Part shown: positions 40,307 to 61,044 of the stretch, in pieces | Position numbering within the stretch: the first letter of the stretch is position 1 | Layout of the letters: each line of letters starts with the position of its first letter | Sequence record: NZ_CP104589.1 | Direction: 5' to 3' (one strand) | Length of the DNA: 64,000 nucleotides | DNA from: a plasmid | The notes under the pieces: generated by a model | Databases searched by the model: none | Told to the model about the DNA's origin: nothing | What the model saw: the letters and a program-made list of their open reading frames with translations, nothing else | Made by a program: the position numbers and the translations under genes

Positions 40307-40318
40307 TCAACGCCCCTG

Positions 40319-41124: not shown

Positions 41125-41140
41125 CTGTCTATATATACAG
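41125..41140. promoter_or_regulatory. LexA (SOS) box upstream of rulA
   Basis: CTGTCTATATATACAG fits the CTGT-N8-ACAG consensus, 9 bp upstream of rulA start. Confidence 0.65.
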
Positions 41141-41286
41141 CACCAGTCTACCTTCTGCTGACGCATCCAGGAAGTCAGGGAGAATTTTCTTCCTGGAATT
41201 CCTTTGCCGGCGGCCTTGTTCAGGCTTGGGATTTATGGATGCGATGTGATCCTAGATCCATATCCAGCCACTAAGAAAACCACACC

Positions 41287-41496
41287 ATGTCCATGCGCCG
41301 CTTCCAGGTTAGAGACGTATCGAGTTACTTCAACAACGAGCCGACATTTGACGTTGTTTACCACGATGACGAGCACGGGGTTGTGCGGTGCTCAGACTCC
41401 GTGTGGATCTCGAATTTTGCTGCCGAGCAAGAGGCGAATCGCCTAGAGCGATCCAAGGCTGCCCCGACGCACTGGGAGGTTGTAGCCGATGCGTAA
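41287..41496 (+). CDS. hypothetical protein
   Basis: 69 aa. Confidence 0.3.
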   Translation: MSMRRFQVRDVSSYFNNEPTFDVVYHDDEHGVVRCSDSVWISNFAAEQEANRLERSKAAPTHWEVVADA

Positions 41497-41689
41497 CGCA
41501 AGTCTGAAACTGCCCGTCAAGTTTGGCCTCGGCAAACTGGATAAGCCAATGACCGAAGCCCAGGCCCGCAACTGGGGCAAAGCCAACATGCCGGCTGATC
41601 TTGCCGCCGCCGGTTTCAAGGTAGGGGTTTTTCGTTCAGACCCTGATCTACATGGTTCCGATTTCTATCGCGTCAGCTTTGGCAAATAA
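41489..41689 (+). CDS. hypothetical protein
   Basis: 66 aa, overlaps previous. Confidence 0.3.
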   Translation: MRNASLKLPVKFGLGKLDKPMTEAQARNWGKANMPADLAAAGFKVGVFRSDPDLHGSDFYRVSFGK

Positions 41690-41750
41690 CCGCTTCCGGT
41701 TTGGACTTATGCAGACTGCCCAGCGGCTGCTGGGCAATCTCGCCAGGTGA

Positions 41751-42953
41751 TCAGTTAAAGCGCCGGTGAAGATCCGGAAATACCAGCTGGGCGAACCAAA
41801 CCGGAAAAGCGGGATATAGCATCCTGGACTTAGGCGTTGGTGAGTCGATCACCCCTATCAGGATCAACTTCTTCAGCTGCTCAATCGCCTGCCGCTCGTG
41901 AAGGCCGAAGCAGGCTTTTGCATCGACCCTTGGTACCTCGCCCTGAGTGATCAGTAGGTGCAGTACCCGTGCCGCTGCCTCCGGCTTGATGCCGTTCTCA
42001 ATAAACCTTCTCTCGTAGTGAAGAATGGCGCCGAGGCGATCTCTAAGCTTTGTGATGGCCAGTGCATTCAGCGTGTATTCGATCTGGTCCTGGCACGCGC
42101 TCAGCATGAACCGCACGAACTCAATCAATCCAGCCTGCGTCAGCTGCCCACGGCCATCGAGCGGCCCTCTTCTTGGCTGATCCGCGGCTTTCAGCCACCC
42201 GTAATATTCGTCCTGGCGGCGGGCAAGGCCTCGCGATATTGACCACAAAGGCGAGGCCAGACCGAGCTTGCACAGCTGCAAATTCGTGACCATTCGGATA
42301 ACCCGGCCGTTACCGTCCTCAAAAGGGTGAACGTAGGCAAGCCGATGGTGATACGCCATGGTCGCCAGCAGCTTTGCAGATAATCCGTGCTTGGCGCCAT
42401 AGACCTGCTGCAAACGCTCAAGCATTGGCGTAACGGACTCCCAGGCGGGGGCATCGTGATGGCCAACCGTTACGTTCTGCTGGGAAACGTCGCGCAGCTG
42501 GCCAGGCACCATTAAGCGATCTTCGCTCACCCTAAGGTCATCCTCCCGAGCATCCGCAAATAGCCGCCGATGCACGGTTTTGACGAGCGGTACCGCGAAC
42601 ATATCCGACCAGGAAATATGCCGCTCAAACATGGAAAGCTTGCGCTCAAGGACTTCTTGAACCTGGATGTGGGTCAGCGCGAGCAGACCAAGCTCTTTAG
42701 CCTCCCGCCGCTTCATGCGTTGGCTCATTTCAGCAGGTTCTGTGTACTGCCCTTCAATCAGGTTGCTGTAGTAGCTGTTGGTCAGCCGCATCAGCGTCCC
42801 TAATCGTCTCGCGGTTTCGGGCGCGACAGAGCCTGCAAGCTTCCCAGCCAGGAAGGGCAAAGAGTCGGCCAGATCGCAGACATCACGGGGAAAGTCGGGC
42901 GAAGGCCAGATCGGCTCAAGCCAGTGGTTGCCCTTCACAAACTGAGTCGTCAT
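41751..42953 (-). CDS. fic: Fic/DOC-family protein
   Basis: 400 aa; canonical Fic motif HPFEDGNGRVIR. Confidence 0.85.
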   Translation of the reverse strand: MTTQFVKGNHWLEPIWPSPDFPRDVCDLADSLPFLAGKLAGSVAPETARRLGTLMRLTNSYYSNLIEGQYTEPAEMSQRMKRREAKELGLLALTHIQVQEVLERKLSMFERHISWSDMFAVPLVKTVHRRLFADAREDDLRVSEDRLMVPGQLRDVSQQNVTVGHHDAPAWESVTPMLERLQQVYGAKHGLSAKLLATMAYHHRLAYVHPFEDGNGRVIRMVTNLQLCKLGLASPLWSISRGLARRQDEYYGWLKAADQPRRGPLDGRGQLTQAGLIEFVRFMLSACQDQIEYTLNALAITKLRDRLGAILHYERRFIENGIKPEAAARVLHLLITQGEVPRVDAKACFGLHERQAIEQLKKLILIGVIDSPTPKSRMLYPAFPVWFAQLVFPDLHRRFN

Positions 42954-43138
42954 TTTTTCCCCGGTTTTTCAGATTTATTTTCACATTGCCCATCACTCGG
43001 CATGGCTAGTATAGCCTGGCTTTGCGGCTATCCTAGCCGAGCATGAGACAGCCATTTTTTCAGATTTATTTTCACTTTTTTCGGGTCATATAAACCGCCC
43101 CCACTTTACCCCTTGGGTTTCGCGCCCACTGGTGGAGC

Positions 43139-43447
43139 ATGAGCGCATCTCAATCAGGAGTCGCGCTCATGCCCTGCCCTATCTCGCAAGACATCTACGA
43201 CCGCTTTCTCGATGCCATCCTGCCCGCTGAAGAGCTGGGCGGGCCTGAAAACAAAGCCTATGCCGACTTGATGATGCGCATTGCGGGTGAATGCCTGCGA
43301 CGGGCGAATGCAATGGGCGAGGCAAATGAGTACAGCGACCTGACGGGCTTTACCGGGCCGACTCTATTTCTGGTAGAAAATTTCCGCTCGGAGCTTCAGG
43401 CGGCAGAGGGCTTTGATGTGTATTCCGAGCCTAGAACCACCCACTAA
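43139..43447 (+). CDS. hypothetical protein (operon gene 1)
   Basis: 102 aa. Confidence 0.4.
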   Translation: MSASQSGVALMPCPISQDIYDRFLDAILPAEELGGPENKAYADLMMRIAGECLRRANAMGEANEYSDLTGFTGPTLFLVENFRSELQAAEGFDVYSEPRTTH

Positions 43448-43510
43448 GGGGCTTGGGATTCCCAGCATGCATGGGAATCTGTACCTATCAAAACCAAGGA
43501 GGTTTCCCCC

Positions 43511-43996
43511 ATGACCCCGCTTCACTTCTCCCTGATCTTCACCGGTACCGTCAGCCCGAACGGCGGCGACGAGGAGGCCAACGGCATCGCCATGACTCGC
43601 GGGGAGCTGAATGCTCACCTGGAGCAGGCTGTGGCGAATATCACCGCCAACGGCTTGGTCACTGGCGATACGCCGGCCACCCTCGAAGAACACACCCATT
43701 GCGTGCGTATCACCACCGGCAAGGTGGACATGATGGCCTCTCCCATCATGTCGACGGCGCACCTCGATCAAGAAACATTCGAGCTGCTGGCTCAGTCCGG
43801 CGGCTCGCTTCCATGGGCCACGGTCGCCACCTACCCCGAGGGGTTCTTCCTCCTGCTGATGGATAACCCGGATGCCTCGATCCCGAAATGCATCGCGGAT
43901 ATTCACCAGTGGCAAAAGAGCCAAGGCCTTAACGGCTGGGTCCGCCTGGATCGCGACTGGGAATGTGTCGATGGCCTGCCGGTTTACGAGTGGTGA
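43511..43996 (+). CDS. hypothetical protein (operon gene 2)
   Basis: 161 aa; AAGGAGG SD. Confidence 0.45.
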   Translation: MTPLHFSLIFTGTVSPNGGDEEANGIAMTRGELNAHLEQAVANITANGLVTGDTPATLEEHTHCVRITTGKVDMMASPIMSTAHLDQETFELLAQSGGSLPWATVATYPEGFFLLLMDNPDASIPKCIADIHQWQKSQGLNGWVRLDRDWECVDGLPVYEW

Positions 43997-44490
43997 TGGC
44001 CATGCATTGCACCGACGCACTGAATAAAGCCCGCTCCACCACCGCTGAGCTTGCCTTCTCGGGGTATGACTTCGGCCTGCTGATCACTGACTCTGGCTCC
44101 TGGGCCGAAACCCACACCGATGACTGGGTGAGGTTTTGCTATGGGGAGGACGACCATGCAGCGGAGCGTTACCGCATCGCCCTGAATGTCCGCTTTGAAA
44201 AAGGGTCGGCCAAGCCGGTCGAGGTGTATGCCCTGGACCTCAAGTCTGGCGGGGTCATCGGCACTGCGGGTTCGGTCGATGTCCCGGCGGCAGAAGAATC
44301 TGTGGCCACCTACAACCACGCCTTCACTATCGCGTTTTCCGTGCCTGGCTCCAAGTGCCCAGACGGCGAGGACGTGACAGCAGAGCAGATGGCCGCAGCT
44401 CTGCAACTGCGGATCAAAGACCTCATGTCGAACGGTGAAGAAATGCTTGAGGCCGTTGGTGCGCCCTACGACACCTACGTGGAGCAGTGA
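43996..44490 (+). CDS. hypothetical protein (operon gene 3)
   Basis: ATG overlaps previous TGA (TGATGG). Confidence 0.45.
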   Translation: MAMHCTDALNKARSTTAELAFSGYDFGLLITDSGSWAETHTDDWVRFCYGEDDHAAERYRIALNVRFEKGSAKPVEVYALDLKSGGVIGTAGSVDVPAAEESVATYNHAFTIAFSVPGSKCPDGEDVTAEQMAAALQLRIKDLMSNGEEMLEAVGAPYDTYVEQ

Positions 44491-44750
44491 CCATGGCCAT
44501 AGAGCGCGTTAGCGGTTCACACCCGTATGTCGCCAGCTGGCAGGCTTATGGCGGGCACACGATGTATGTCGGCGTGTTCCCCTCAGAGGCGTGTGGTCAG
44601 GTGCTGCTGGCCACCGAAAGATCATCAGAAGCGGCCGGTTTCGCGACCCCAGAGGCGTGTGCTGCCGCGATAATGGCTGCCGGCTTCAAGCTGGATGGGG
44701 AGACGTGGGTCGATATCGCCCCCCTTTGCGGCCAGCTTGGCCTCTTCTAA
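44487..44750 (+). CDS. hypothetical protein (operon gene 4)
   Basis: 87 aa; start overlaps previous stop. Confidence 0.4.
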   Translation: MTMAIERVSGSHPYVASWQAYGGHTMYVGVFPSEACGQVLLATERSSEAAGFATPEACAAAIMAAGFKLDGETWVDIAPLCGQLGLF

Positions 44751-44769
44751 TCCCAGGAGAAATTTTCCC

Positions 44770-45072
44770 GTGCGATTCCTTGATGCGGTGCTGGTCCTGG
44801 CCCTTGCCGCCCGAATACATCGTACAGACCGGGCCGTCCGAGAGGTGGCCCGGGCAATCGTTAATCGTGTTGACCCACGGTACCGGCACATCGTCGAGGC
44901 CTACGTCCGCGCCAAGACGCCGTGCGCGGCCGTTGAGCAGATGGTCGCCACCCTCCCCGATTGGATTTTGAATATGAACCCAGCCCCTTGCCCGGTGCCG
45001 AGCGCCGCAGCGGCTAACACCCCGGCAGGCGGGTTCCCCAGGAAATTTTCGACAGCAGGAGCAATAACGTGA
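44770..45072 (+). CDS. hypothetical protein (operon gene 5)
   Basis: GTG start inside a copy of the GGAGAAATTTTC palindromic element. Confidence 0.35.
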   Translation: MRFLDAVLVLALAARIHRTDRAVREVARAIVNRVDPRYRHIVEAYVRAKTPCAAVEQMVATLPDWILNMNPAPCPVPSAAAANTPAGGFPRKFSTAGAIT

Positions 45073-47267
45073 ACCAGGAGATTGAAAGCCCCGTTGCCGC
45101 CAGCATCGCGCAGGAGAAATACGGCTTAACCGCCGGCACCCCGCTGCTGGATCTGGACCCCGGCGAACCGCTCAGCATGATGGAGCGATTGCTTGGCGAA
45201 GACATGCGCCGCGAGGGATTCAAGCTGGCCACCAGCGTTGAAATGTTCCTGACCAACGACCTCAACATTCCAGAGGTTTCCCAGCGTGTTTGGAGCAAGT
45301 GGTATGGCTCGCGCAGGGCGGCCGATAAGGTCGAAGCAGTTATTCGGTCATCGCAGGGGGCGCGGCAGGCAAAGTTCCTCAAGAAACTCCGGCACCTCCC
45401 CCCGCTGATGCTGCTGACGGTTGTATTTGGAAGCCGGGGCGCATGGTTGCTGATTAAGCACGGCCTGAGCAGCGAGTCGATCCATGCTATTCGCCCCGAT
45501 GCTCGGCTGCCCTTTATCACGGAGGAACTGTTCGCCAAGTACCCCCGCAAACAGCACCAAGGGCGCTCGTATCAGGCCCAAGAAAGTGGCGAGCTGGCCG
45601 CGGTAGCTCGCACCGTCGAGCTGGCCTGGCCCTTTATGGCAAAACTGCATGACCACGGGTTTTACCGTCACGCCACTGCCGAGCGCCTGGTGAGCGTCGA
45701 TGAGATTTGTAGCGTGATCGAGGCCGGCGGCGTAAGCGCTGTAGACCTTTCTCTGTTTCGCGTTTCGATAGGTCTGCTGCTGTCAAACCTGCTGCCCCGC
45801 ATTGAGGCCATGGCCGCCATCACCAGGCCCGCAGTCGCCCAGAGCTACTGCGCCGGGTTTGAGTTCGGCGGAATCAAACACGCCACATTCGACCCGAATG
45901 TTTGCTTCTGGGATCAGGTAGACGGAGAACACTTCGAGGAAACCTGCAAGCAGATAGCCCTGGAGTCGCGCATGCGCCTTGAGTTCCAGGACGATGAAAG
46001 CCGGTTCTCCGCTCAGTTCGATGATGTTTCGGCCAACATCGTGCGCGCTTCCAGCCTCGGTCGAGTCGTCGAAGCAGTGTTTTCGGAGCTGTGCTTCGAG
46101 CCTATCGGCTACGAGTTTTACTACTTGGTTCGTGACACCCTCGTTGATTGCTATGAGGCCCTCGATGACGCCCCCGAGCTGGACCTGACGCCCTTCCCCG
46201 AAGATCTGCTGGGCCGCCCCCTCAACCTGATGGACATTCAGGCACCGGATCTGGCCTTACTGGAGGTCGGTCGCCTTCGCAAGAACATCCACAGCGAGGT
46301 TATGCGCCTGACCGGCATCATTGCCGGTGACAAGGAGCGTGCCGAGCGCCTGGAGGCCATTCAGACCAAGATCAGAGAGCTGGCTGTCGAAGCCAGTCTG
46401 GCCAACATGAAGAAAATGGGGGAGCTGGCCGGCGAGGCATCCAAACTGATCGAAAGTGGCCGGGGCTGGCTGCTGGAGGTTTTCTCCCCTGCTGCGCATG
46501 AGTATGTGGCGCACTGGCACAACTTCTATGCGGCGATAGATGCTCTCCCGCGCAAGGGCCTGCCGGCGATGCAACACACCCCGCCTGATAGCGAAGACTC
46601 CCGCCCCGGCCCCGGCCATGGTGATGTGGAGATTGCCGAGCTGAAAGAGCTGCTGCACCTGGCGCAGGCCGACAACGAGCATCTTCGTCGTGAGCTGGAT
46701 GAATTGCGCGCCTCGGCCCATCGCATGCGCAGCCAGCTGGCGAACAAACAGGAAACCCAGGAAGAAAATATTCCCCTGGATTGCATGGGTGCCATTGCCC
46801 GCCTAGTAGCCCGGAAGGATTGCGGCCCAGCCGATGTGCTGAACTACTACGCCGGTACCGCACCTGATCGGCTGACAGTTCTTCCAGGCGCGTTGGCAGG
46901 TGCTCAGGCTTACCAGATCCCGTATGAGCCAACCGAGCGAATGATCGAGGTCATGGGCAAGCTCGTAGGGCCATACCTCGACGCTCTGCGCAGCGGTCAA
47001 CCCGACACCCTGGCTCGCAACGTCCTGGGCGGCAAAACCTATGCGGCCAAGGAGTCCGAAACCACCTTGGCAACATCGCGCTTCAGGGCTATGCGTGAGT
47101 TTGAGTACAAGGGCGAGAAACGCCTGTTTGTCCAGCACCTGAGGATCAGCAATGAGGTCGGCGCCAAAGGCATGCGGATCTACTTTGGCGTGGATGGTGA
47201 TGGGCAGGACAAGCGCATTATCGTGGCCTATGTCGGTCCGCATATGGGGGTGCCCAGCAGCAACTGA
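45069..47267 (+). CDS. large hypothetical protein, 732 aa (operon gene 6)
   Basis: ATGA overlap with gene 5; coiled-coil-like central region; no NTPase motifs seen. Confidence 0.5.
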   Translation: MNQEIESPVAASIAQEKYGLTAGTPLLDLDPGEPLSMMERLLGEDMRREGFKLATSVEMFLTNDLNIPEVSQRVWSKWYGSRRAADKVEAVIRSSQGARQAKFLKKLRHLPPLMLLTVVFGSRGAWLLIKHGLSSESIHAIRPDARLPFITEELFAKYPRKQHQGRSYQAQESGELAAVARTVELAWPFMAKLHDHGFYRHATAERLVSVDEICSVIEAGGVSAVDLSLFRVSIGLLLSNLLPRIEAMAAITRPAVAQSYCAGFEFGGIKHATFDPNVCFWDQVDGEHFEETCKQIALESRMRLEFQDDESRFSAQFDDVSANIVRASSLGRVVEAVFSELCFEPIGYEFYYLVRDTLVDCYEALDDAPELDLTPFPEDLLGRPLNLMDIQAPDLALLEVGRLRKNIHSEVMRLTGIIAGDKERAERLEAIQTKIRELAVEASLANMKKMGELAGEASKLIESGRGWLLEVFSPAAHEYVAHWHNFYAAIDALPRKGLPAMQHTPPDSEDSRPGPGHGDVEIAELKELLHLAQADNEHLRRELDELRASAHRMRSQLANKQETQEENIPLDCMGAIARLVARKDCGPADVLNYYAGTAPDRLTVLPGALAGAQAYQIPYEPTERMIEVMGKLVGPYLDALRSGQPDTLARNVLGGKTYAAKESETTLATSRFRAMREFEYKGEKRLFVQHLRISNEVGAKGMRIYFGVDGDGQDKRIIVAYVGPHMGVPSSN

Positions 47268-47321
47268 TCCACTTGGGATTGGCGGGGCGGACGGTAGGGT
47301 GTTACAAAACAGGAGACACCC

Positions 47322-47717
47322 ATGGATAGCCGCACACTGCACCGCCTCGCCACCAATCCCAAGGCCCTGATGGAATTCCGTGCCAGCGGTCGTCTGCCGG
47401 CCGAAAATCAGCCCTCCAGCCCTCTTATCACCCTATTGCAGTCCCTGCAGCCTCGGGAGCGCCTCAGAATCGCCGCTGTGACGATTTCGCTCCCTCTGGG
47501 TTATACCGGTTCAAGAATCTTCAAAAACGCTCAGCAGGCGCTCAATTGGCTCCTTCCTGCCGGCTCGCCCCGCAATGTCCCAAGTCAATCTTGGCAGGAC
47601 AAGCGATTCCGGCGTCCGCTGACCGTTGATGACCTGGGCCAGCACGCCACGGTGCCGGCCGATGTGGCAGAGGCGTGGTGGCGCCGCCACCCTCACCTGC
47701 GCCGGCCTCAGCCGTGA
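47322..47717 (+). CDS. hypothetical protein (operon gene 7)
   Basis: 131 aa. Confidence 0.4.
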   Translation: MDSRTLHRLATNPKALMEFRASGRLPAENQPSSPLITLLQSLQPRERLRIAAVTISLPLGYTGSRIFKNAQQALNWLLPAGSPRNVPSQSWQDKRFRRPLTVDDLGQHATVPADVAEAWWRRHPHLRRPQP

Positions 47718-48106: not shown

Positions 48107-48495
48107 TCGCTTGGGTTTTAGCGAGCCAGGGGCAAGCTAGCTCGGCATTGGTTGCGGTTGCGCTTGCTATCAGTTCGCTGCTGCGCCGCAGATCCATCTG
48201 ACCGACTGCATGCTCAATGAAACCTCTCCCCTGGATGGGGGCTTTTGACTGTTCGTATAGGCGGTGTGATGTTGTGGGTTGCCCCTTGCTCGCGAATTTG
48301 CGCTATGAGCGATTGCCAGCTTTGCTTAGGGGACTTCCCGTTTGCGGCAGCGGTTTTGATCGCTGCCGCTTTCTCATCGAATCGGTTTTCCACAACCAGT
48401 TTTCGCTTTTAAAGCTTTTTAGATATTTTTTTACTTGTTTTTTCTTGTTTTTAGGAGGCTACAAGCCCCGTGGCACTAGGGCTGTAGAGGATCAT

Positions 48496-49160
48496 CGGCT
48501 ACAGATTCAATGTTTACGGCTACAGATTCAATGTTTCATGCCTACAGATTCAATGTCATCGGCTACACATTCAATGCTACCGGCTACGGATTCAATGTGC
48601 CGTCCCCAGCTTGTCCACAGCCCGTCTAATCCGGGCCTATTACAGCCGGCCCCTCTTGTGCGCGTTTATTCTGCAAGATTCTTGTAGGTTTTAGGATTTT
48701 CGCCTCATGATCGCGCCAAGCTGCTGATTTGTAAGGTTTTTTTCCTTCTGGCCGTGAGGTGCTTGAAGTGAGCATAAAAGCTACAGATTCAATGCTGGGT
48801 TCGCCGCTTCCTGCCGACTAAAAGCTACAGATTCAATGCCGGAAGGCCTCGATCAGCCAGTCCAAAGGCTACAGATTCAATGCTCACTCCGGGCCAAAGA
48901 CCGCTTAAAGCTACAGATTCAATGCTGTCAGGGCCCGTTTCTACTCTAAAAGCTACAGATTCAATGTTCTCTGCAGTGACTGGTACCGGCAAAAGCTACA
49001 GATTCAATGCTGTGGAGGCGGCAATATGGGCAAAGGCTACGGATTCAATGTTGCGCCATATCCTCAGGCCGTCTATATCGGCTACACATTCAATGCTCAA
49101 GAATCGTTCGGAGCCTTAAAGCTACAGATTCAATGCTGGCGTTTGGGAATTCGGTTGCGC
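48496..49160. repeat. plasmid oriV iteron array: 5 tandem plus 9 spaced copies of about 20-bp iteron
   Basis: Core (A)AAGCTACAGATTCAATG(CT): tandem at 48496-48600 (21-bp period), then 9 copies at about 44-bp period 48779-49140; upstream AT-rich stretch 48415-48455. Confidence 0.75.
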
Positions 49161-49216
49161 CCCTTAGTATTCGTGGTGTTAGCTTGCCGGTCAGCTCCGG
49201 CGACAAGAAATTAGGG

Positions 49217-50044: not shown

Positions 50045-50088
50045 GCCTGCCCGCTCCCAGCCAGGGGAGCTTCCCGAGGAGATTTGCT

Positions 50089-50340: not shown

Positions 50341-50392
50341 CTGTAGCCACCCCTCGCCTCCCCTCCCCTTCCTTGGGTTTCCCTATGGTCGT

Positions 50393-51070
50393 GTGAGTCT
50401 GGTTGCATCCAACACCGGAGCGACCGCGATGATCACGACCAACACCAGCAGCAAAGACCTCGAAGACGTTGGCCTGCTGTTCCACTCGATCCTGCGCTAC
50501 GCCGAGGCTAATGCAGAGCGCCTAGATCGCTCGATCATTGCTATCGGCTACAGCACCCTGCTGAGAAACGCCGACCAAGCCTCCGGTTTCCTCGCACAGC
50601 TCCACGTTGAGTCCGGCGAAGAGTGGGACGGCTGCGTCTGGCTTGAGCGCCTTGAGGACATAAGCGAGGGCAGTCTGGCCCAGAAGCTCTATGCAGATGG
50701 CGTTGATGTCGAAAGCGCCGTGACTGACTGGCTCTCGCGATACCGCCCCAGCGCTCAATTCAAGGTGCCGGTTGAAGGGGAAGATACCGCGAGCCTGTAT
50801 CTGATGAACAAGCACGGCCACTACTTCAAGCTGAATTTGACGGCGCTGGAGGTAGACAAGGATCGCCTGCATGGCTGCACCTTCTACGAAAGCGAGGCGG
50901 CTTTGCTGGAGGCTGTATGCCGTTTGACCGGCTGCGACCTCGACGAGGTATCGGGCAGCACTTCTTATGTCGCCCTGCGCAACGGAGAGCCCACGATATT
51001 CGACGCACGCGGCATCGGTGAGGCGATTGAAGGTCCTGTCGAAGATTGCATCGTTGAGTATGAAGTTTGA
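50393..51070 (+). CDS. hypothetical protein (GTG start; alternative ATG 50429)
   Basis: About 213-225 aa. Confidence 0.45.
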   Translation: MSLVASNTGATAMITTNTSSKDLEDVGLLFHSILRYAEANAERLDRSIIAIGYSTLLRNADQASGFLAQLHVESGEEWDGCVWLERLEDISEGSLAQKLYADGVDVESAVTDWLSRYRPSAQFKVPVEGEDTASLYLMNKHGHYFKLNLTALEVDKDRLHGCTFYESEAALLEAVCRLTGCDLDEVSGSTSYVALRNGEPTIFDARGIGEAIEGPVEDCIVEYEV

Positions 51071-51252
51071 GCCACCCAGCCGTGATGCAGCCGCCCGAGC
51101 GGAGCGGGATCTGGTTGCTGCAGGCGTGATCAAGTGAGGAGGAAATTTTCTCCTGCAATTCCCTTTGCCGGCCAGCTCCCATGGCCGGTCAGCGCTTGGG
51201 ATTCTCCAGAGCAGTGAGAGGCTGAAGGCATCACCAAGGAGGCGATGCCACT

Positions 51253-52983
51253 ATGCAAACCCAGTCCCACCATCACGAGCCTACCCCGATCATCCAAGGC
51301 GAGATTCTCGACCAGTTCTATGCCCCCGTTCAGTTCGACGCCCTGATGCTGCTTGTGAGCGAGTTCGAGCGCTTGCGCAGCCGCATCATCGAAGTGCATG
51401 GCATCGTGAGCCAAGAGCGGGTCAGTGGGGTGATGGACTATTTCTTCAATGGCAATGGCTCAGACCAATATGGCCACAGTGCATTGTTGCGGCACCTCAA
51501 TTCCTTCACCGAGATTTTCAACCTGGATGGTGCCCTCAACGAATTGACGGCCACCTTCTGGGATCGCGCTCTGCGCCAAACAGACCTGATGGAATACATG
51601 CCACAGGCCCGGCGTACCCAGTGGCACGAGACGCTAAATGCCTGGCGTGCTCACGGCTACAAGCGAGGGGAAAATCCTGAGCTCGATATGCCTGAATTTA
51701 CCCTCGACACCCTCCGCGCCACAGTACAAAGCCTCATGGCACGCCGGGCAGAATTCCTCTCGGAGCGGGTGGACGGGATATTCCGCGGCCTGAGCCGCCA
51801 GCACGTCACGAACGTGCCCGAGGGCTTTGGCAAGCGCATGATCATGTCGGGGGTCTACAGCGAGTGGGGCTCAACCTGCAGCAGCCGTGAAGGCGTTGTG
51901 CATGACCTCAGAATGGTGATCGCCAAGTTCATGGGCCGCGATGACCCGTGCCGAGGCTCCACCGGCCAGTTGCTTAGAACCGCCCGTGCCGCCCGGGGTG
52001 AGTGGATCGAGGCCGATGGCGGTGCTATTCGGGTGAGGGCTTACAAGGTCGGTACCGCCCACCTGGAGGTACACCCGGACATGGCCTACCGTCTGAACAT
52101 GGTGCTGGCCTACCTGCACCCTGCAGCCATTCCTGAGTCATTCCGCACACGCCCCAAGCGAGCCAAGGCCTGCGGCTTCAAGAGCAAGGCATTGTTCGAG
52201 CGTCCATTCTCGAATGCCGTGGGCGCGGTGCTGGCCGGCATGGGCCAGTTCAAGAAGATGGTCAAATCGCAGTCCTTCCGGAACCCATACGACTACATCC
52301 CAGTAAAAAATGCGGTCGCGGCCTCCTACCAGAGCAAGGAAACCAGCAAGCACCTGCTTGCCGAGGTGAACACAGTGATGGAGGCCCTGGGAGGCGTCCT
52401 CACCACCTGCAGCGAGAATCCTCGGTTCACCTACTGGCAGTTCGACTATGACGCTCTCGATCTGGTGCATGAGGTTGGGGTTCTCGGGTATATCCCGGAT
52501 CACCGCTCACATCAGTATTACCCCACTCCGGAGCCCGCGGCCCAGCAGCTGGTTGAATGGCTCGATATTTCCCTGCTCGACACGATCTGTGAGCCTTCTG
52601 CGGGTCAGGGTGGAATCGCTGACCTGCTGCCAAAGGATCGAACCCGTTGCGTCGAGATCAGCGCCCTGCACTGCGACATCTTGCGCAAGAAGGGCCACAA
52701 CGTAACCGAGGCGGACTTTTTGTCCTGGAATCCCGGCCCGGATCTGTTCTCTGTGATCGCAATGAACCCGCCGTTCAGCGAAGGCCGCTGGCAGGCGCAC
52801 CTCAAGCACGCCAGCACCCTGCTGGCGGACAAGGGCCGCATCGGCGCTGTGCTGCCAATGAGCGCCAAGCGTGCTGCTGCAGAGCTGCTGCCGGGCTTCG
52901 ATCTGGAGTTCTCCGAGCCAATCGATAATGCATTCGCCGGTACCACGATCAGCGTGGTGCTGCTCAAGGCCATAAAGCGCTAA
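51253..52983 (+). CDS. fusion protein: about 400-aa unknown N-domain plus compact C-terminal gamma-class N6-adenine DNA methyltransferase domain
   Basis: C-terminal YPTPEPAAQQLVEW, motif I ICEPSAGQGGI, motif IV VIAMNPPF; no adjacent restriction gene. Confidence 0.7.
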   Translation: MQTQSHHHEPTPIIQGEILDQFYAPVQFDALMLLVSEFERLRSRIIEVHGIVSQERVSGVMDYFFNGNGSDQYGHSALLRHLNSFTEIFNLDGALNELTATFWDRALRQTDLMEYMPQARRTQWHETLNAWRAHGYKRGENPELDMPEFTLDTLRATVQSLMARRAEFLSERVDGIFRGLSRQHVTNVPEGFGKRMIMSGVYSEWGSTCSSREGVVHDLRMVIAKFMGRDDPCRGSTGQLLRTARAARGEWIEADGGAIRVRAYKVGTAHLEVHPDMAYRLNMVLAYLHPAAIPESFRTRPKRAKACGFKSKALFERPFSNAVGAVLAGMGQFKKMVKSQSFRNPYDYIPVKNAVAASYQSKETSKHLLAEVNTVMEALGGVLTTCSENPRFTYWQFDYDALDLVHEVGVLGYIPDHRSHQYYPTPEPAAQQLVEWLDISLLDTICEPSAGQGGIADLLPKDRTRCVEISALHCDILRKKGHNVTEADFLSWNPGPDLFSVIAMNPPFSEGRWQAHLKHASTLLADKGRIGAVLPMSAKRAAAELLPGFDLEFSEPIDNAFAGTTISVVLLKAIKR

Positions 52984-53095
52984 AGCTTGGGATTCCAGGG
53001 TTTGCATTCAGGCTTGCTTGCAAGGATCTGGTCAGATAACGACGCACAGCGCCGCCTCTGGCCGGTACCCTCCCCTATCAGCAAAGGAGAACCCC

Positions 53096-53500
53096 ATGAC
53101 TCAATCCGATATTCTTGCTATGCCGGCTGACGACTACATGAACGAGGCCCAACTGGCCTTTTTTGAGTGCCTGCTGCGCGAGAAGCTGGCCGAGACAGTG
53201 GCGTCCATAGAGTCGGCACGCAAGACCATCGCAGACCTTGGCGTTGCCCCTGATGAGGTCGACCAGGCATCAATCGAAGAAGAGCGGGTGGCGCTGTCGC
53301 GCTCACTGGAGAGGCTCAACCAGCAGGTGCAGAGCATCAAGCATTCGCTGAAGTCGATAAGCGATGAAAGCTACGGGTATTGCGAAGAAACAGGCGAAGA
53401 GATCGGGCTGCAGCGTCTGCTGGCCCAGCCTACTGCGCGATTCTCGGTAGCGGCGCAAAGCCAAAAAGAGCTTATTGCGCGTCATTATTTAGCGGCATAA
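53096..53500 (+). CDS. DksA/TraR-family C4 zinc-finger protein
   Basis: 134 aa; coiled-coil N-part and C-terminal CxxC...CxxC-like finger (SYGYCEETGEEIGLQRL). Confidence 0.65.
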   Translation: MTQSDILAMPADDYMNEAQLAFFECLLREKLAETVASIESARKTIADLGVAPDEVDQASIEEERVALSRSLERLNQQVQSIKHSLKSISDESYGYCEETGEEIGLQRLLAQPTARFSVAAQSQKELIARHYLAA

Positions 53501-53510
53501 GGAGATTTAA

Positions 53511-54057: not shown

Positions 54058-54431
54058 AGAAGCATCTGATTCTTCTGTTGATATGGTTGCTGCTAAGCCT
54101 CGTATTGATCACATCCATAAAATTAAGCGGTGTGCCGCTTGAAGTCCTGGCGTACCTTACTGCAGCGGCGCTGGCATTCCCGCCAAGCGCCCTAATCTAC
54201 TGGCTTGCACGACTTCCAGAAGACCGGTACATAGCATTTCTAGCGTGGGCTTCGATATTCATAACTACGACTTCAGGCTTTGCAATCATTGGGGCTCTTA
54301 TCGGCTGGGGCGTATCAGAGTTTATCCCTGGCATTGAGCTTTCATCGTTCTTTACTTGCGGCGCGATTGTCGGTCTTTCTATATCAGTACATGAGTTTTT
54401 CTCAGGAAAAAACAAAGCCGTGAAGATATAG
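54054..54431 (+). CDS. hypothetical membrane protein (low GC)
   Basis: 125 aa, 4 TM helices; ATGA overlap with previous. Confidence 0.45.
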   Translation: MKKHLILLLIWLLLSLVLITSIKLSGVPLEVLAYLTAAALAFPPSALIYWLARLPEDRYIAFLAWASIFITTTSGFAIIGALIGWGVSEFIPGIELSSFFTCGAIVGLSISVHEFFSGKNKAVKI

Positions 54432-54547
54432 CGATCCTCTATCCATAATGAAATGCCGCCCAGTGCGGCATTCTTTTGCCCAGGCGCAATGCTTGGGTAT
54501 TTCTAACATCATGTAACGATGCCTTTATGAAAGTAGAGGCAGGCATC

Positions 54548-55294
54548 ATGTCAGAAGTTATAAATCATCGCCCTATCAGCAAATCCCACAACCTGCTCTA
54601 TGTCGAGTACGGGGCCAATTCCCTCGGACGAGACTTTCTTGTGGGTGATGTCCACGGCGAGCATGACGTACTTATGGAGCTGCTTGAGTTGGTCGGATTC
54701 CGTTTTGGATACGACCGCTTATTTATGGCTGGCGATCTGGTTGATCGCGGCCCTAAGCCGCTTTCTGTACTTGGCCTGTTGCGCAATGATGGTGTTATAG
54801 CCGTTAAAGGGAATCACGATCAATGGTGTGTAGAGGCCGGGTTTGTTGGGGAGCCTGCCGGCCATCGCCGTTATGGCGGTGAGTGGTTTTATCAACTTGA
54901 GCAATTAGAGCAACAAGCCGTTGCCTTCTTCCTTAATCAACTTCCTGTTGCCCTCTCCTTCATTGGCCCGTGCGGAAATAAGTTTGGTGTGGTTCATGCC
55001 GAAGTTCCATCCAGCTCCTGGGACTGGTTTTGCGAGGGGCTGCGCGGCGACTACGGCCAGGCGTTCTGCGAGCGCTATGTCACCGAAGCGCTCTGGAGAC
55101 GCACCCGGTATGAGGAGAAACAGACTCATCCGGTCAGTGGAGTGGAGAAGGTTTTCGTCGGCCATACCGTGGTCGATGAAGTGACCGAGCTGGGCAATGT
55201 GGTGTACCTGGACACCGGCGGCTGTTTCGACGATGGACGATTGACCCTGGTTGAGCTGCAGTCGGCCGGCGGATACCTCATCCACCAGCTCTAA
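54548..55294 (+). CDS. PPP-family Ser/Thr protein phosphatase (lambda-PPase/PrpA-like)
   Basis: GDVHG, GDLVDRG, GNHD metallophosphoesterase motifs in canonical order. Confidence 0.75.
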   Translation: MSEVINHRPISKSHNLLYVEYGANSLGRDFLVGDVHGEHDVLMELLELVGFRFGYDRLFMAGDLVDRGPKPLSVLGLLRNDGVIAVKGNHDQWCVEAGFVGEPAGHRRYGGEWFYQLEQLEQQAVAFFLNQLPVALSFIGPCGNKFGVVHAEVPSSSWDWFCEGLRGDYGQAFCERYVTEALWRRTRYEEKQTHPVSGVEKVFVGHTVVDEVTELGNVVYLDTGGCFDDGRLTLVELQSAGGYLIHQL

Positions 55295-55457
55295 CTGTGG
55301 GAGAGGCTGTGGGACGGATCATGCTGGCTGTATCAATATCCAGCATCTACAATGCCTACAGCCAATATGTACACAGATAGATTATCTGTGTACATCAGCT
55401 GAAATTTCATGCCTCGTGCGGCCGAATACCCGCACGAACAAAAGTTATGGATCGTCA

Positions 55458-55778
55458 ATGAGCAAAAACCTGATCGACGCCCTCAAGCACGCTTCTGAAG
55501 GCAATCCGCCTCATGCAGATTTGCTGCTGCAGGCGGCTGAGGCTCTTTCACTTCAGGCCACCGAGCGCGAATTGCTCGTGCGCCAAATTTCGCGTCAGCG
55601 TCAGCTGATCATTGATGATCGGTCACTGATCACCGAGATGGAGCCTGTGCTGGCAGATGCCCGCGAGTTCCTCCGTCAGCATGGGCAAAACGTACTGGTC
55701 AACCGAGCCAGCGAATGCTTGCGTCATTACGATGCTTCGCTGGGCATCAAGCCGGAAAAGGCAGGTGAGCGAGCATGA
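55458..55778 (+). CDS. hypothetical protein
   Basis: 106 aa; preceded by 28-bp palindrome TGTACACAGATAGATTATCTGTGTACA. Confidence 0.4.
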   Translation: MSKNLIDALKHASEGNPPHADLLLQAAEALSLQATERELLVRQISRQRQLIIDDRSLITEMEPVLADAREFLRQHGQNVLVNRASECLRHYDASLGIKPEKAGERA

Positions 55779-56164
55779 GTTATTTCGCGTGGAAAACGAT
55801 TGGTGCCGACCGGGCTATTCGAGCAGTCGAGGCAGGCGCTGAAGTATGGGCTCTCCCAGCCGGTGGGTTTTTCTCGGGGGGGCATACCTACACCCACGGA
55901 CTCATGACCAAGCGCGGAACGTGCTACGTAGTCAGCAAAATGGTCATGCGTGCTGTCGAGAGCGCCCAGGCTTTGAAGTCTGATAAAGAGAACGCCCCAG
56001 ATCAGGAGCGCTGGCCCCGGGCCAACCCCAAGCTGCTGGAGTCATTCGACCCAGCCACAAAGGTCTGCACCATGAACTGCGGACCACACGTCGACGACCC
56101 GCGCAGCATCGCAGAGCGAAAACTGCTCTGCACTGACTGTGATCTACGGAGTATTCAAGAATGA
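55775..56164 (+). CDS. hypothetical protein
   Basis: 129 aa; overlapping start. Confidence 0.4.
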   Translation: MSYFAWKTIGADRAIRAVEAGAEVWALPAGGFFSGGHTYTHGLMTKRGTCYVVSKMVMRAVESAQALKSDKENAPDQERWPRANPKLLESFDPATKVCTMNCGPHVDDPRSIAERKLLCTDCDLRSIQE

Positions 56165-56394
56165 GCACTACCTTTACCACCCTACCCGGCCTCCCCTCAG
56201 CATGCACTGACTGCGGTAGCGCTTCGCTGTTCTGGCAAGCCGGTAATATCGTCAAAAACGGTGTCCAGGACGGCCGGCTAAAGCTCAACGAGGTTCAATG
56301 CCAGTTCGTACTCGGGTGCGAGCGATGCTCTGAAACCTTGGCCGTGGTAAGTGCCGACCGTATGGCCGATATGCTGAATGGCGCTAAGGACTGA
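56161..56394 (+). CDS. hypothetical Cys-containing small protein
   Basis: 77 aa; CTDCGS...CERCS. Confidence 0.35.
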   Translation: MSTTFTTLPGLPSACTDCGSASLFWQAGNIVKNGVQDGRLKLNEVQCQFVLGCERCSETLAVVSADRMADMLNGAKD

Positions 56395-56405
56395 AGGAAC
56401 CCCAA

Positions 56406-56912
56406 ATGACCCAGAAGGCCTCCATCTTGATCAGTTCCGAACCACTCAAGCCCTACCTTGATGCTGTCGAGCTGGCAGAGAAGAAGTGGGAAGCTGTAGG
56501 TGCTGCCTATGACGCAGCTCCGGCCGGGGAAAAAGGAAGTTATGCAGAACGGTTTCAGGATGCTGAGAGGGCCTATAACTCGGCATGCGTCCAGCTGGCG
56601 AGGTTCGTGGCGAGCGAGGTAGATGAAGCAAGGTCAGCTGAGCTGAAATCGTCAGCAGCATTGGTTCGCCCTGATCCAAAAATCTACAGCGCCAAGCTGA
56701 CGCAGGGGCAGAACGCTGCACTGGCCCGTTATGAGGCAATCTGTGGCCTTGAACCGGTGGATCTGGAGGCGTTTGATACCGGCCAAATCACCGCTTACGA
56801 GCTGTGGCAGAACAACCTGTTCCTATTGGAAAGCGTGCTGGGTGATGTCCAGAAAACTCACTTTCCAGTACCGCAGGAAGAGTCCATGGCCGCATGGGCC
56901 AAGGACGAATGA
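56406..56912 (+). CDS. hypothetical protein
   Basis: 168 aa. Confidence 0.45.
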   Translation: MTQKASILISSEPLKPYLDAVELAEKKWEAVGAAYDAAPAGEKGSYAERFQDAERAYNSACVQLARFVASEVDEARSAELKSSAALVRPDPKIYSAKLTQGQNAALARYEAICGLEPVDLEAFDTGQITAYELWQNNLFLLESVLGDVQKTHFPVPQEESMAAWAKDE

Positions 56913-57238
56913 GCACCCATATGCAGAAAATTCCGGCTGGAGAAGGCCCGATGAGTGATGAAGCACAATGCGCGAGGTCCACTATGAGTCAGTTGGAACA
57001 GACCATCGTAGATCGCGCCAGAGCCCACCTGGCCGGCGTGAATGTCTTCTACATCCGAGCCAAAGCCGGTACCGCCGAAGAGGTAGATCGCCGGGGCTAT
57101 GAACGCGACCATGCGGCCATGAATGCACTACTGGAGCTGGGCCACTGGCGTGACAGCGGCATGAGTGAAGCAGGCCGCAGTGCCCTGCTCGCAGTCGAGG
57201 TCGAGGCTGCCGTTGCCCTTCGGGACTACTGCTCTTAA
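56909..57238 (+). CDS. hypothetical protein
   Basis: ATGA overlap with previous gene. Confidence 0.4.
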   Translation: MSTHMQKIPAGEGPMSDEAQCARSTMSQLEQTIVDRARAHLAGVNVFYIRAKAGTAEEVDRRGYERDHAAMNALLELGHWRDSGMSEAGRSALLAVEVEAAVALRDYCS

Positions 57239-57294
57239 CGCTCTAGTCAGCTCCCTGTCCCTCCCCTCCAGCACCACCTTCCAGAAGGTATCTG

Positions 57295-58485
57295 ATGTCG
57301 AAACTCACCCCCAAATTCGTCAAGGAAGAATCCCAGCCAGGGGTATACCAGGACGGGCGAGGCCTGATCCTCCGAATCGCGGATACCGGCCGCAAGAGCT
57401 GGATATTCCGCTATTCCTTCCAAGGGAGCAGGCATGACCTGGCCCTGGGCACCTACCCTGCCCTTTCCCTACGCGATGCGCGCCTGGCAGCCGACAAGGA
57501 GCGGGTGACGATTTCCAGGGGAGAAAATCCGCTGGCAATCCGCCAGGCTCAAAGGGGTGAGGCGACATCCAAGCGGCAATCGGCCAAGAGCTTCAAGGCA
57601 GTGGCAGAGCAGTTCATCAAGACCCACGCGCCTACCTGGAGCACAGGCTATGCCCGGGACTGGCGGTCGAGCATGCTGAACCATGTCTACCCTGTGATCG
57701 GTAAGTTGCCTCCGGCCGATATCGACACAGCGATGGTGCTGCGCGTCCTGGAGCCGATCTGGCTGACCATACCAACCACCGCTCAGCGCGTGCGGAATCG
57801 GATAGAGCTGGTACTGGATGCGGCCAAGGCGAAGGGTATGCGTGATGGTGAGAACCCGGCCCGGTGGCGGGGCCACCTGGATAAGCTGCTGCCACGGCAA
57901 CCAAAGAGCAAGGTGCCCTTCCCCGCTATTGAGTGGAATCGGGCCCCCGCGGTCTACAGGGAAATTTCCTCCCTGGATGGGGTGTCAGCCCGGGCACTGG
58001 AGTTCCTGATGCTCACAGCATGTCGCAGCAAAGAGGTTCGCCTGGCCCAGTGGGATGAGATCGACCTGGAGGAGCGGATTTGGACGGTACCGGCGTCACG
58101 GATGAAGAATGGCAAGATCCATCGGGTACCACTGACAGAGGCCATGGTCAGCGTCATTGAGTCAGTTCGAGGGATTCATCCGCGCTGGCTGTTCAAGAAA
58201 ACTTCGGGCGGTGGCCCGATCCCCGCGAATGCGCTGAGTCGTGTGCTTGAGCGCATAGACCTGGAGCAAGCAGTGCCCCATGGATTCAGGTCGACCTTTC
58301 GCACCTGGGCGGCTGAAGCGACTGACTTTCAGCGGGATGTTTGCGAGGTGGCCTTGGCTCATACCCTGCCTGACAAGGTAGAGGCCAGCTACAATCGTGC
58401 GGAATTTCTTGGCAAACGCCGTGCCCTGATGGAGGCCTGGTCAGGTTTCCTGGTACCCGCAGTACAGTGCAGCCAGGCCGCTTAG
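57295..58485 (+). CDS. int: P4-type tyrosine integrase (arm-binding N-domain plus catalytic domain)
   Basis: 396 aa; N-terminal GLILRIADTGRKSWIFRY (DUF4102-like), catalytic HGFRSTFRTWAAE and LAHTL...Y. Confidence 0.85.
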   Translation: MSKLTPKFVKEESQPGVYQDGRGLILRIADTGRKSWIFRYSFQGSRHDLALGTYPALSLRDARLAADKERVTISRGENPLAIRQAQRGEATSKRQSAKSFKAVAEQFIKTHAPTWSTGYARDWRSSMLNHVYPVIGKLPPADIDTAMVLRVLEPIWLTIPTTAQRVRNRIELVLDAAKAKGMRDGENPARWRGHLDKLLPRQPKSKVPFPAIEWNRAPAVYREISSLDGVSARALEFLMLTACRSKEVRLAQWDEIDLEERIWTVPASRMKNGKIHRVPLTEAMVSVIESVRGIHPRWLFKKTSGGGPIPANALSRVLERIDLEQAVPHGFRSTFRTWAAEATDFQRDVCEVALAHTLPDKVEASYNRAEFLGKRRALMEAWSGFLVPAVQCSQAA

Positions 58486-59240
58486 CTGGCCTGCTGCATG
58501 GTGGCGCTAACAAGGGCGATGGTAGAGGTGGCGTCGAGCCATGGGGTGCTACGGCGGATCTGTAGCAGGAAGATGGAGGCGACGTAGAACACATCAGGCG
58601 CCTCAATCGGAACGGCTTTAACCCCCTGGCCTTTCTCGAAGACCTTCACGAACACCTTGCCGCCATCCTGCCGTTCCATTGAGAAGCCTTTGCTGTTGTC
58701 CTGGCCATGCGACTTGAACTCGCAGGACTTCCGCTTGCCAAGCAGGACTGCAGCGACAACCGGCAGCTCTGCCCGGGTCATCTGGATACGAACCTTTTTC
58801 TTCCAGTCGTAGGTCTTGGGACCGACAGATGCAGCCGCATCCAGTGCAATGGTAGGTACACCGCCCCGCGTGGTGTCCTCCTCGAAGCACAGCGCGGCCC
58901 GGCCGCCGTAAACATGGAACTTTGCGCGCTCTTGCCCCTGAGGTTGTTCACCGCGATGACGGGGTGCCTGGTCATCATCATTGACCCGGCCCTCACCTTC
59001 GGATACTTCCGCTTGTTCTTCCGCGACCATCAAATCAGCACCGGCTAACGCTTTGCGCACATAGTCCTGCGCAGCCGGGTTCGTCAGATTGTTTACGGCG
59101 CGAATAAGCGTAGCCCGGTCGGCATGCTGAAAGACCTCTGGCACCTTGGCTGGAGGGATTGGCGGAAAGTTGTGCGCGAGCAACTTGATGTTGATTTGCT
59201 GCAGGGTCACATTCTGCTCAGCAACTGCGTTTTTTGACAT
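58482..59240 (-). CDS. hypothetical protein
   Basis: 252 aa, convergent with int. Confidence 0.45.
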   Translation of the reverse strand: MSKNAVAEQNVTLQQINIKLLAHNFPPIPPAKVPEVFQHADRATLIRAVNNLTNPAAQDYVRKALAGADLMVAEEQAEVSEGEGRVNDDDQAPRHRGEQPQGQERAKFHVYGGRAALCFEEDTTRGGVPTIALDAAASVGPKTYDWKKKVRIQMTRAELPVVAAVLLGKRKSCEFKSHGQDNSKGFSMERQDGGKVFVKVFEKGQGVKAVPIEAPDVFYVASIFLLQIRRSTPWLDATSTIALVSATMQQAS

Positions 59241-59354
59241 GACTGAACCTCAAAGCGTTTATTGCACTCTACTGAACGACTATGAAAACCCAATCGCTTG
59301 GGATTGTAAGAGTGAAGATTAAGTTTGTAGCAGGTCTATAAGAGGAGAACCTGC

Positions 59355-61014: not shown

Positions 61015-61044
61015 AACACCCTTCAGAAAATACCCAACAGGCCA

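Follow-up and report, generated by a model that had tools for sequence, protein, structure and literature searches.

A recurrent GCTTGGGWTT box as the predicted -35 part of a promoter class on the backbone of IncP-7-type plasmids

A 10-bp box, GCTTGGGWTT, recurs ahead of the backbone genes in 64,000 nt of the plasmid record NZ_CP104589.1, a Pseudomonas resistance plasmid; this whole stretch is called the window here, and its coordinates are 1-based. In silico analysis shows the box to be the -35 part of a conserved, predicted promoter class. The explanation favoured for it, held tentatively and with a little less than even confidence, is a family-wide backbone regulon under positive control, in which RNA polymerase would recognise the -35 box with the help of a dedicated specificity factor.

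A sequence-only reading of the window had described GCTTGGG(A/T)TT as a recurrent sequence before plus-strand genes, and this recurrence is borne out. Exact GCTTGGGWTT occurs eight times, always on the plus strand (1934, 3488, 41224, 43451, 48109, 51194, 52985 and 59296), against an expectation of 0.30 and a maximum of 2 in 100 dinucleotide-preserving shuffles of the window, and 21 matches with one mismatch allowed compare with 8.7 expected. A position weight matrix (PWM) trained on related plasmids only, with the window excluded, identifies 14 sites where second-order Markov simulations yield 1.3, so that the comparison with controls proposed in that reading places the box far above chance. 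The matrix set consists of the ten sites listed earlier together with 43111, 54491 and two minus-strand sites, 59295 (GATTGGGTTT) and 61039 (TGTTGGGTAT), while an extra variant, GTTTGGGAAT at 49141-49150, lies at the rep promoter directly after the last iteron. The ten listed positions mostly stand, two of them having been placed about 10 nt off (1925 for 1934 and 41214 for 41224); eight are exact copies of the box, and 47271 (ACTTGGGATT) and 50371 (CCTTGGGTTT) carry one mismatch each.

The sites found by the matrix are oriented toward a downstream open reading frame (ORF), with the exception of 48109, which has no ORF behind it. The distance from box start to start codon is 51-64 nt at 12 of the 13 gene-linked sites (full range 51-111 nt), agreeing with the 40-65 bp given earlier, and at six boxes the stop codon of the preceding ORF lies 1-13 nt before the box start, as had also been noticed. 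Standing before backbone genes to the left and right of the resistance mosaic, the box is non-random and orientation-specific, in the manner of a regulon-wide promoter element.

Ungapped alignment on the box, with the box start numbered 0, brings out a fixed pattern downstream. Across 20 exact boxes from four replicons, T stands at +29 in all 20 (p 5e-14), G at +22 in 17 (p 2.2e-7), A at +25 and A at +36 in 15 each (p 5.5e-7 for both) and C at +28 in 13 (p 7.0e-4). Over a larger set of 85 sites, drawn from six replicons, the consensus reads gCTTGGGWTTyy, N8, g, tG, n, (T/G)AnncT, g, N4, cA(+1). The inferred layout places the box at -36 to -27, with TTG at -34 to -32, a 16-bp spacer, an extended -10 TG, A-11, T-7 and a purine start, +1 A, 7 nt downstream of the -10; these elements together make up the signature of a sigma70-class promoter, in which TTGnnn and TAnnnT are 16-18 bp apart and the start follows the -10 by about 7 nt. 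In denying a sigma70 fit of spacing and hexamers, the earlier reading was mistaken as to geometry, which matches the class exactly; poor hexamer quality is the only misfit. None of the box promoters passes a sigma70 consensus scan with a threshold of at least 9 of 12 hexamer bases, their overall match being 5-7 of 12 and their typical hexamers TTGGGW with GAGGCT or GAATCT.

The spacing is rigid: 60 of 113 YTTGGGWT words in five replicons have the A+25/T+29 pair, and when the pair is shifted by one or two positions in either direction, the 2-6 cases observed against 5.3 expected amount to chance. Leaders run to 15-28 nt from predicted +1 to start codon. The gene-dense region of 41-60 kb contains a single canonical sigma70-like site against 8.5+-2.7 in shuffles, a depletion consistent with the box promoters acting as the main promoters of this part of the backbone. 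The idea of a stringent-type, GC-rich discriminator was dropped because discriminator GC is close to the genome average. The predicted promoters of the window are as follows.

1934-1970, plus strand: box promoter with GCTTGGGTTT, TGG, -10 TTTTCT (1958-1963) and predicted +1 A at 1970; PWM 28.1; target, the DEAD-box helicase gene (ATG 1990), whose orthologous promoter was footprinted in eight replicons.
3488-3524, plus strand: box promoter with GCTTGGGTTT and -10 CCAAAT; PWM 12.7; targets, ORF 3552-3959 and then the HU-like gene 3984-4259 (HU-like by Pfam).
41224-41260, plus strand: box promoter with GCTTGGGATT, TGT, -10 GATCCT and +1 A; PWM 26.1; target, 41287-41496; divergent from the umuD-like gene.
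43111-43147, plus strand: box promoter with CCTTGGGTTT, -10 GAGCAT and +1 A; PWM 18.9; target, 43169-43447.
43451-43487, plus strand: box promoter with GCTTGGGATT, TGG, -10 GAATCT and +1 A; PWM 28.0; target, the DUF5983 gene 43511-43996.
47271-47307, plus strand: box promoter with ACTTGGGATT, -10 TAGGGT and +1 A; PWM 21.2; target, 47322-47717.
48109-48145, plus strand: box promoter with GCTTGGGTTT and -10 CAAGCT; PWM 18.6; faces oriV.
49141-49177, plus strand: variant box at the rep promoter with GTTTGGGAAT and -10 TAGTAT (49165-49170); target, rep (ATG about 49229).
50371-50407, plus strand: box promoter with CCTTGGGTTT, TGT, -10 GAGTCT and +1 A; PWM 27.3; target, 50429-51070.
51194-51230, plus strand: box promoter with GCTTGGGATT, TGA, -10 GAGGCT and +1 A; PWM 30.5; target, the DUF4942 gene 51253-52983.
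52985-53021, plus strand: box promoter with GCTTGGGATT and -10 CAGGCT; PWM 11.6; target, the DksA-like gene 53096-53500, with a long leader.
54491-54527, plus strand: box promoter with GCTTGGGTAT, TGT, -10 AACGAT and +1 A; PWM 24.2; target, the Ser/Thr phosphatase gene 54548-55294; a terminator-like hairpin lies upstream.
59259-59295, minus strand: box promoter with GATTGGGTTT, -10 TAGAGT and +1 A; PWM 13.0; target, the Whirly-domain gene 58482-59240.
59296-59332, plus strand: box promoter with GCTTGGGATT, -10 TAAGTT and +1 A; PWM 19.1; target, 59355-59672, coding for a Cys-rich protein of 105 aa.
61003-61039, minus strand: box promoter with TGTTGGGTAT, TGT, -10 TTTGAT and +1 A; PWM 14.6; target, 60478-60978, upstream of the MvaT-like gene.

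The minus-strand promoter at 59259-59295 and the plus-strand promoter at 59296 stand back to back at 59286-59305, AAACCCAATC abutting GCTTGGGATT. The 252-aa product of 58482-59240 (minus strand) matches the Pfam Whirly family of single-stranded DNA-binding transcription factors (E 3.3e-5).

These arrangements bear on the idea that the box works at the RNA level, as a signal for processing, translation coupling or CsrA-type binding in polycistronic transcripts, for which the six boxes just past an upstream stop codon and a CsrA homolog annotated on pCAR1 could be cited. The box lies at varying distances from the start codon but at one fixed distance from the -10-like T; RNAalifold predicts 0 pairs in 12 sequences, no Rfam match is found, and the divergent boxes at 59286-59305 lie in non-transcribed spacers. 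With no structure, no Rfam match and distances fixed to the -10 only, this reading is effectively refuted and deserves almost no credence.

The columns of the 85-site table bear on a known host alternative sigma factor (sigma32, sigma54, AlgU/sigmaE or FliA) using the box as its -35, which is very unlikely. CTTG is common to the box and the sigma32 -35 CTTGAAA, and some sites read TGTGA where AlgU wants TCTGA, but an A and a T four apart with TG three upstream of the hexamer form the sigma70/RpoS pattern, and the columns match none of CCCCATNT, GG-N10-GC, GAACTT-N16-17-TCTGA and GCCGATAA. Sigma54 (GG-N10-GC, -24/-12) was rejected on the absence of GC enrichment 10 nt after the box GG (columns 16-18 of the 85-site table). 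Sigma32 (CTTGAAA-N13-15-CCCCATNT) was rejected on columns 21-24, which read tGn(T/G) and not CCCC, and on an A-to-T distance of 4, not 3. For AlgU/sigmaE (GAACTT-N16-17-TCTGA, AAC essential), columns -2 to 0 are unconserved and contain no AAC, and T+29 and A+36 are not explained by this model.

The sequence-only reading had regarded the box as plasmid-specific, a view overturned by its presence in pCAR1, the PheN2 plasmid, pPS-VIM-5, an Azotobacter plasmid and metagenome-assembled genome (MAG) contigs. A PLSDB megablast with the 41-60 kb region returned no close relative, and the relatives came via the left arm and the helicase protein, a helicase search of genome contigs yielding only three loci. 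The window backbone is syntenic with the plasmid of Stutzerimonas degradans PheN2 (CP040459), with pCAR1 of incompatibility group P-7 (IncP-7; NC_004444), with the 59-kb VIM-5 plasmid pPS-VIM-5 (NZ_LR822052), and with the Azotobacter plasmid and several MAG contigs. The syntenic genes include those for the helicase, HU, exonuclease, MoxR/DUF3150/VWA, traN, phosphatase, integrase, MvaT-like and ParB-like proteins. The Rep of the window is 49% identical to pCAR1 RepA, the backbone being of IncP-7 type, and the helicase protein shares 63-64% identity with its pCAR1 and Azotobacter plasmid homologs.

About 25 box sites in the PheN2 plasmid and 26 in the pCAR1 backbone are oriented with their downstream genes; pPS-VIM-5 has 19, the rep promoter and par-operon leader among them, and the Azotobacter plasmid has the box at the helicase and umuD-divergent promoters. 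In these relatives the boxes stand before orthologous genes. The pCAR1 ortholog of the 61039 box is TGTTGGGATT at pCAR1 76762, and the PheN2 plasmid and pPS-VIM-5 share the back-to-back pair. Starts predicted in pCAR1, 36 nt past the box start, include 78115, 96200, 97757, 101069, 123020 and 183748, with 114046 and 115230 on the minus strand. When the orthologous helicase promoter is aligned across eight replicons, only CTTGGG.T, TG, T..CT and +1 A are invariant, with a mean column identity of 60%, which makes a clean phylogenetic footprint. Apart from in-gene chance matches, no box sites occur in the tra operons of pCAR1 (about 127-162 kb) or PheN2 (63-86 kb), so the box marks the maintenance and accessory backbone and not a tra regulon. 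A scan of IMG/VR with the box and -10 pattern produced single, chance-level matches and no phage family with multiple copies. No account of the box came up when the full-text literature was searched for its sequence and for promoter motifs of pCAR1 and IncP-7.

Conservation of this kind can be set against an account in which no dedicated factor exists and the box is the lineage's weak -35 variant for host sigma70 (or RpoS), spread by promoter duplication and kept for low constitutive expression. Pseudomonas promoters are often poor matches to the Escherichia coli consensus, the sigma70-class geometry is complete, and duplication of whole promoter regions does happen, as the modules at 41177-41233 and 51138-51203 attest. 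Nevertheless, the non-consensus GGG (-31 to -29) and TT (-28/-27) are kept across paralogous promoters and across orthologs with fully diverged spacers, and among 60 or more promoters, drift to a 17-bp spacer or toward TTGACA is seen in none. Neutral descent would not preserve GGGWTT and a fixed spacer, and this account is distinctly improbable.

The box is short, asymmetric, single-copy and rigidly spaced from weak hexamers, which points to reading by RNA polymerase with a specificity factor. Such patterns belong to alternative sigma factors, to monomeric class II activators such as MarA and SoxS, and to the T4 MotA box, not to dimeric repressors. Under the favoured explanation, GCTTGGGWTT would form the -35 region of a sigma70-class promoter family in Pseudomonadaceae IncP-7-type plasmids. 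Its members, numbering about 15 in the window and between 19 and 26 in the pCAR1 backbone and pPS-VIM-5, would drive non-transfer backbone genes encoding helicases, nucleases, HU-, MvaT- and DksA-like proteins, the phosphatase and DUF proteins, together with rep and par in some members. A dedicated factor would dock over the -35 region and work with RNA polymerase, joining the box promoters into one positively controlled regulon; the options for it are an activator of the monomeric class-II type, a co-factor of sigma region 4 and an unrecognised sigma-like protein.

Several observations weigh against the favoured explanation. Among about 70 ORFs of the window, pCAR1 and pPS-VIM-5, searches of Pfam, NCBIfam and PHROGs recognised no sigma, MotA, FlhDC, AraC, LuxR or classical repressor. 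The invariant TTG is placed where host sigma70 region 4 could bind unaided, and box variants stand at two rep promoters, those of the window and of pPS-VIM-5, that have to work in a naive host, although their -10 hexamers are good (TAGTAT and TATATT). Only 2 of the roughly 26 pCAR1 box sites lie near a unit start defined by tiling arrays, because these 2009 data, of 9-bp resolution, define broad units. The two are ORF120 (123060) and ORF74-73 (81820); the array start of each falls some 40 nt past the +1 predicted from its box (PMC2642839), which speaks for the promoter reading. Most other pCAR1 array units do not coincide with boxes, and the array authors reported no consensus motif between their two mapped promoters, ORF100 and ORF145 (PMC2642839). 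Taken as a whole, the arrays lend the promoter activity of the box weak support. Additionally, most box-linked pCAR1 genes have weak or no separate transcripts or units at steady state (PMC2642839), suggesting that many box promoters are quiet under this condition, and such low expression fits repression as well as a missing activator.

The main rival is negative control by a plasmid-encoded global repressor whose operator, the box, would overlap the -35, the genes firing on entry into a new host and then being damped. Besides the scarcity of steady-state pCAR1 transcripts, the TTG kept at the correct -35 with a usable extended -10 speaks for this possibility, since host RNA polymerase could then act alone. 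The box at rep in the window, and at rep and the par leader in pPS-VIM-5, follows the same pattern as in IncP-1, where global repressors control trfA. Furthermore, a protein of about 114 aa, coded next to rep or par in pCAR1 (68730-69071), pPS-VIM-5 (11538-11882) and PheN2 (43886-44233), is itself box-driven in all three, as autoregulation would predict; it is coded outside the window, has no detectable family and is possibly an autoregulated regulator. On the other side, a single, asymmetric site of 8-10 bp with no dyad or tandem copies is atypical of high-affinity repressors, a repressor leaves the rigid spacer and the uniformly weak -10 hexamers unexplained, and no helix-turn-helix or ribbon-helix-helix repressor candidate was detected among the scanned ORFs. 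Control by a repressor is conceivable and, on balance, unlikely.

For the dedicated factor proposed in the favoured explanation, the family scans returned HU-like, DksA-like, ParB-like, Whirly-domain, weak M50-like, GNAT, phosphatase and integrase matches; many of the scanned ORFs are without a detectable family, and the window covers part of the plasmid. Among the regulators suggested by the sequence-only reading, the DksA-like one has a gene (53096-53500) that itself stands behind a box promoter, and the MvaT-like and ParB-like genes are conserved alongside the box with nothing linking either to it. Every replicon with the box keeps these sequence-specific DNA binders: Rep, the P4-type integrase (57295-58485 in the window) and the ParB-like protein near the MvaT-like gene. 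This ParB-like protein (61045-61950, minus strand, 301 aa) lies near the MvaT-like gene in every relative examined and directly adjacent to it in the Azotobacter plasmid, and its N-terminal 60% has distant homologs that occur as fusions with MT-A70, Dam or N6_N4 DNA methyltransferase domains. It was set aside as the reader of the box, the methylase-fused homologs being of interest and without a link to the box. No FlhC or FlhD was found in the annotations of pCAR1, PheN2 and pPS-VIM-5, nor by a Pfam scan of the ORFs beside traG and mobI, where divergent homologs could be missed. Rep, the integrase, the ParB-like protein, the 105-aa Cys-rich protein (59355-59672) and the 114-aa protein are candidates only for the factor.

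A more speculative proposal is a phage-like "middle gene" programme, in which an unannotated plasmid protein, acting by MotA/AsiA-like sigma appropriation or as a cryptic sigma-like factor, would redirect RNA polymerase to the rigid TTGGGWTT-N14 -10 promoters; this is a long shot. Equally doubtful is its corollary that some 20 host-manipulating genes (nucleoid proteins, DksA-like, phosphatase, helicases and methylase-linked genes) would be switched on independently of the transfer regulon. In a variant that is just as improbable, the box adenines would be targets of the plasmid's orphan methyltransferases, making the -35 an epigenetic entry switch.

The 35-bp element upstream of the box, which had been described as occurring three times, holds in two places.

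41177-41213, plus strand: upstream module copy A, an imperfect palindrome GGGAGAATTTTCTTCC with GGAATTCCTTTGCCGGCGG, ending 10 nt before the box at 41224.
51138-51175, plus strand: upstream module copy C, GGAGGAAATTTTCTCC with TGCAATTCCCTTTGCCGGCC, with a GCCGGCC..GGCCGGT hairpin between the module and the box at 51194.

These two copies align with a local score of 23, against 12-15 for the best in shuffled windows, and the third, at about 44755-44786 inside the DUF7740 ORF 44695-45072, is marginal with a score of 16. Since the similarity of the two solid copies extends through TCAG(C)GCTTGGGATT and so into the box, they resemble two copies of one promoter-upstream module, about 70 bp long, that was duplicated, and the 35-bp elements possibly act as an extra local operator at these two promoters. 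The element was not found at orthologous positions in the relatives.

Further features adjoin the box promoters. The promoter at 48109 has a predicted start at 48145, followed by terminator-like hairpins at 48224-48250 and 48344-48378, and its product could be a short non-coding transcript beside oriV. The oriV contains 14 iterons with the core CTACAGATTCAATG (48499-49135), five spaced at 21-22 bp (48499-48597) and nine at about 42-44 bp (48781-49135), the last of which (49122-49135) abuts the rep promoter box. Rep, of the Rep_3 family, probably starts at ATG 49229 and not at the ORF start 49007. A LexA-type SOS box, CTGTctatatatACAG at 41127-41142, precedes the umuD-like gene 40688-41116 (minus strand), and this SOS box and the box promoter at 41224 occupy one divergent spacer. 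The DksA homolog at 53096-53500 is full length, with DksA_N and zf-dskA_traR domains and one cysteine left of the C4 zinc finger, and by its predicted sequence it resembles zinc-independent DksA2-type proteins.

In the remainder of the window, traN, in the region 17393-21418, is cut at about 18475 by a TnAs1-type transposon of the Tn3 family, whose transposase lies at 18452-21418 on the minus strand. The resistance mosaic extends to about 40.3 kb, where umuC remnants begin (40300-40730). The plasmid has probably lost its transfer genes, as pPS-VIM-5 has. A palindromic octamer, CGGTACCG, is present 14 times (39, 3741, 13556, 34322, 39226, 42588, 43543, 44878, 46853, 48004, 52050, 57067, 58085 and 61981) against 0.43 expected from shuffles, mostly inside backbone ORFs. 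It is moderately enriched in the relatives (10 against 2.7 in PheN2, 8 against 2.5 in the pCAR1 backbone and 5 against 1.3 in pPS-VIM-5), and it may serve as a target for a methylase or a ParB-like protein, or reflect a host oligonucleotide bias.

Among the IncP-7-type plasmids are pCAR1, a model for catabolic plasmids, and plasmids such as pPS-VIM-5 that carry VIM carbapenemases in Pseudomonas and Stutzerimonas; the backbone genes of this group are mostly of no known function, with regulation essentially undescribed. One 10-bp box at nearly every non-transfer promoter provides an immediate map of transcription units and defines a testable regulon, comprising the HU-like gene, the operon leading to the MvaT-like gene, the DksA homolog and the phosphatase, and the box sequence can serve as bait for the controlling protein. 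Should this protein prove to be plasmid-encoded, it would be a candidate for the master switch behind plasmid cost, establishment and host range; a host-encoded one could account for the group's narrow host range.

Among known systems, ordinary extended -10 sigma70 promoters share with the box promoters TTG at -35, the 16-bp spacer, TGn, A-11, T-7 and a purine +1. They differ in that ten bases are conserved here where six would be expected, the non-consensus GGGWTT is invariant and the spacer does not vary.

The AcaCD/SetCD boxes of IncA/C plasmids and SXT/R391 integrative and conjugative elements have approximately TGCCCAAA..GGaCA inside 28-nt motif matches, and identity with them was rejected since both sequence and regulon differ (PMC4207636). 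Their likeness lies in many orientation-specific copies per element, placed at the -35 of promoters whose own -35 hexamers are poor, as in class II activation, and these elements (MOBH, MPF-F relatives) share the MOBH relaxase, mobI, traN, ssb-bet and ORF100-103 with the IncP-7-type family. However, the sequences are unrelated, only CCCAA being shared with the reverse complement of the 10-bp box, a second half-site upstream of the box is not conserved, and AcaCD/SetCD drive tra operons, from which the box is absent.

The middle promoters of phage T4 combine a MotA box, (a/t)(a/t)TGCTT(t/c)A, with a strong TAnnnT -10, sigma being appropriated by MotA/AsiA. There, too, an asymmetric single box of about 9-10 bp near -30 replaces the -35 hexamer at a fixed distance from a sigma70-type -10, and many copies precede small co-directional genes; the box of the plasmids, at -36 to -27 with invariant spacing, has this geometry. 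The box sequence is another one, the T4 -10s are strong, the replicon is a plasmid and not a phage, and among the roughly 70 ORFs scanned no Pfam or PHROG match to MotA or AsiA domains appeared.

The operators of global repressors, namely KorA/KorB in IncP-1, the StbA TTGCATCAT boxes of R388 and the omega heptads of pSM19035, are palindromes or arrays of at least two repeats. As with the box, one short sequence stands at many backbone promoters, including those for replication and partition, with maintenance controlled apart from transfer, and the StbA box can embed the -35 hexamer just as the box does. In contrast to these operators, the box is single, asymmetric and rigidly spaced to the -10, its flanks carry no information, the only dyad is formed by the two divergent promoters at 59286-59305, and no homologous repressor was found. 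AcaCD/SetCD is therefore the closest system in kind and T4 MotA the closest in geometry, while KorA/KorB, StbA and omega are closest in logic if control is negative.

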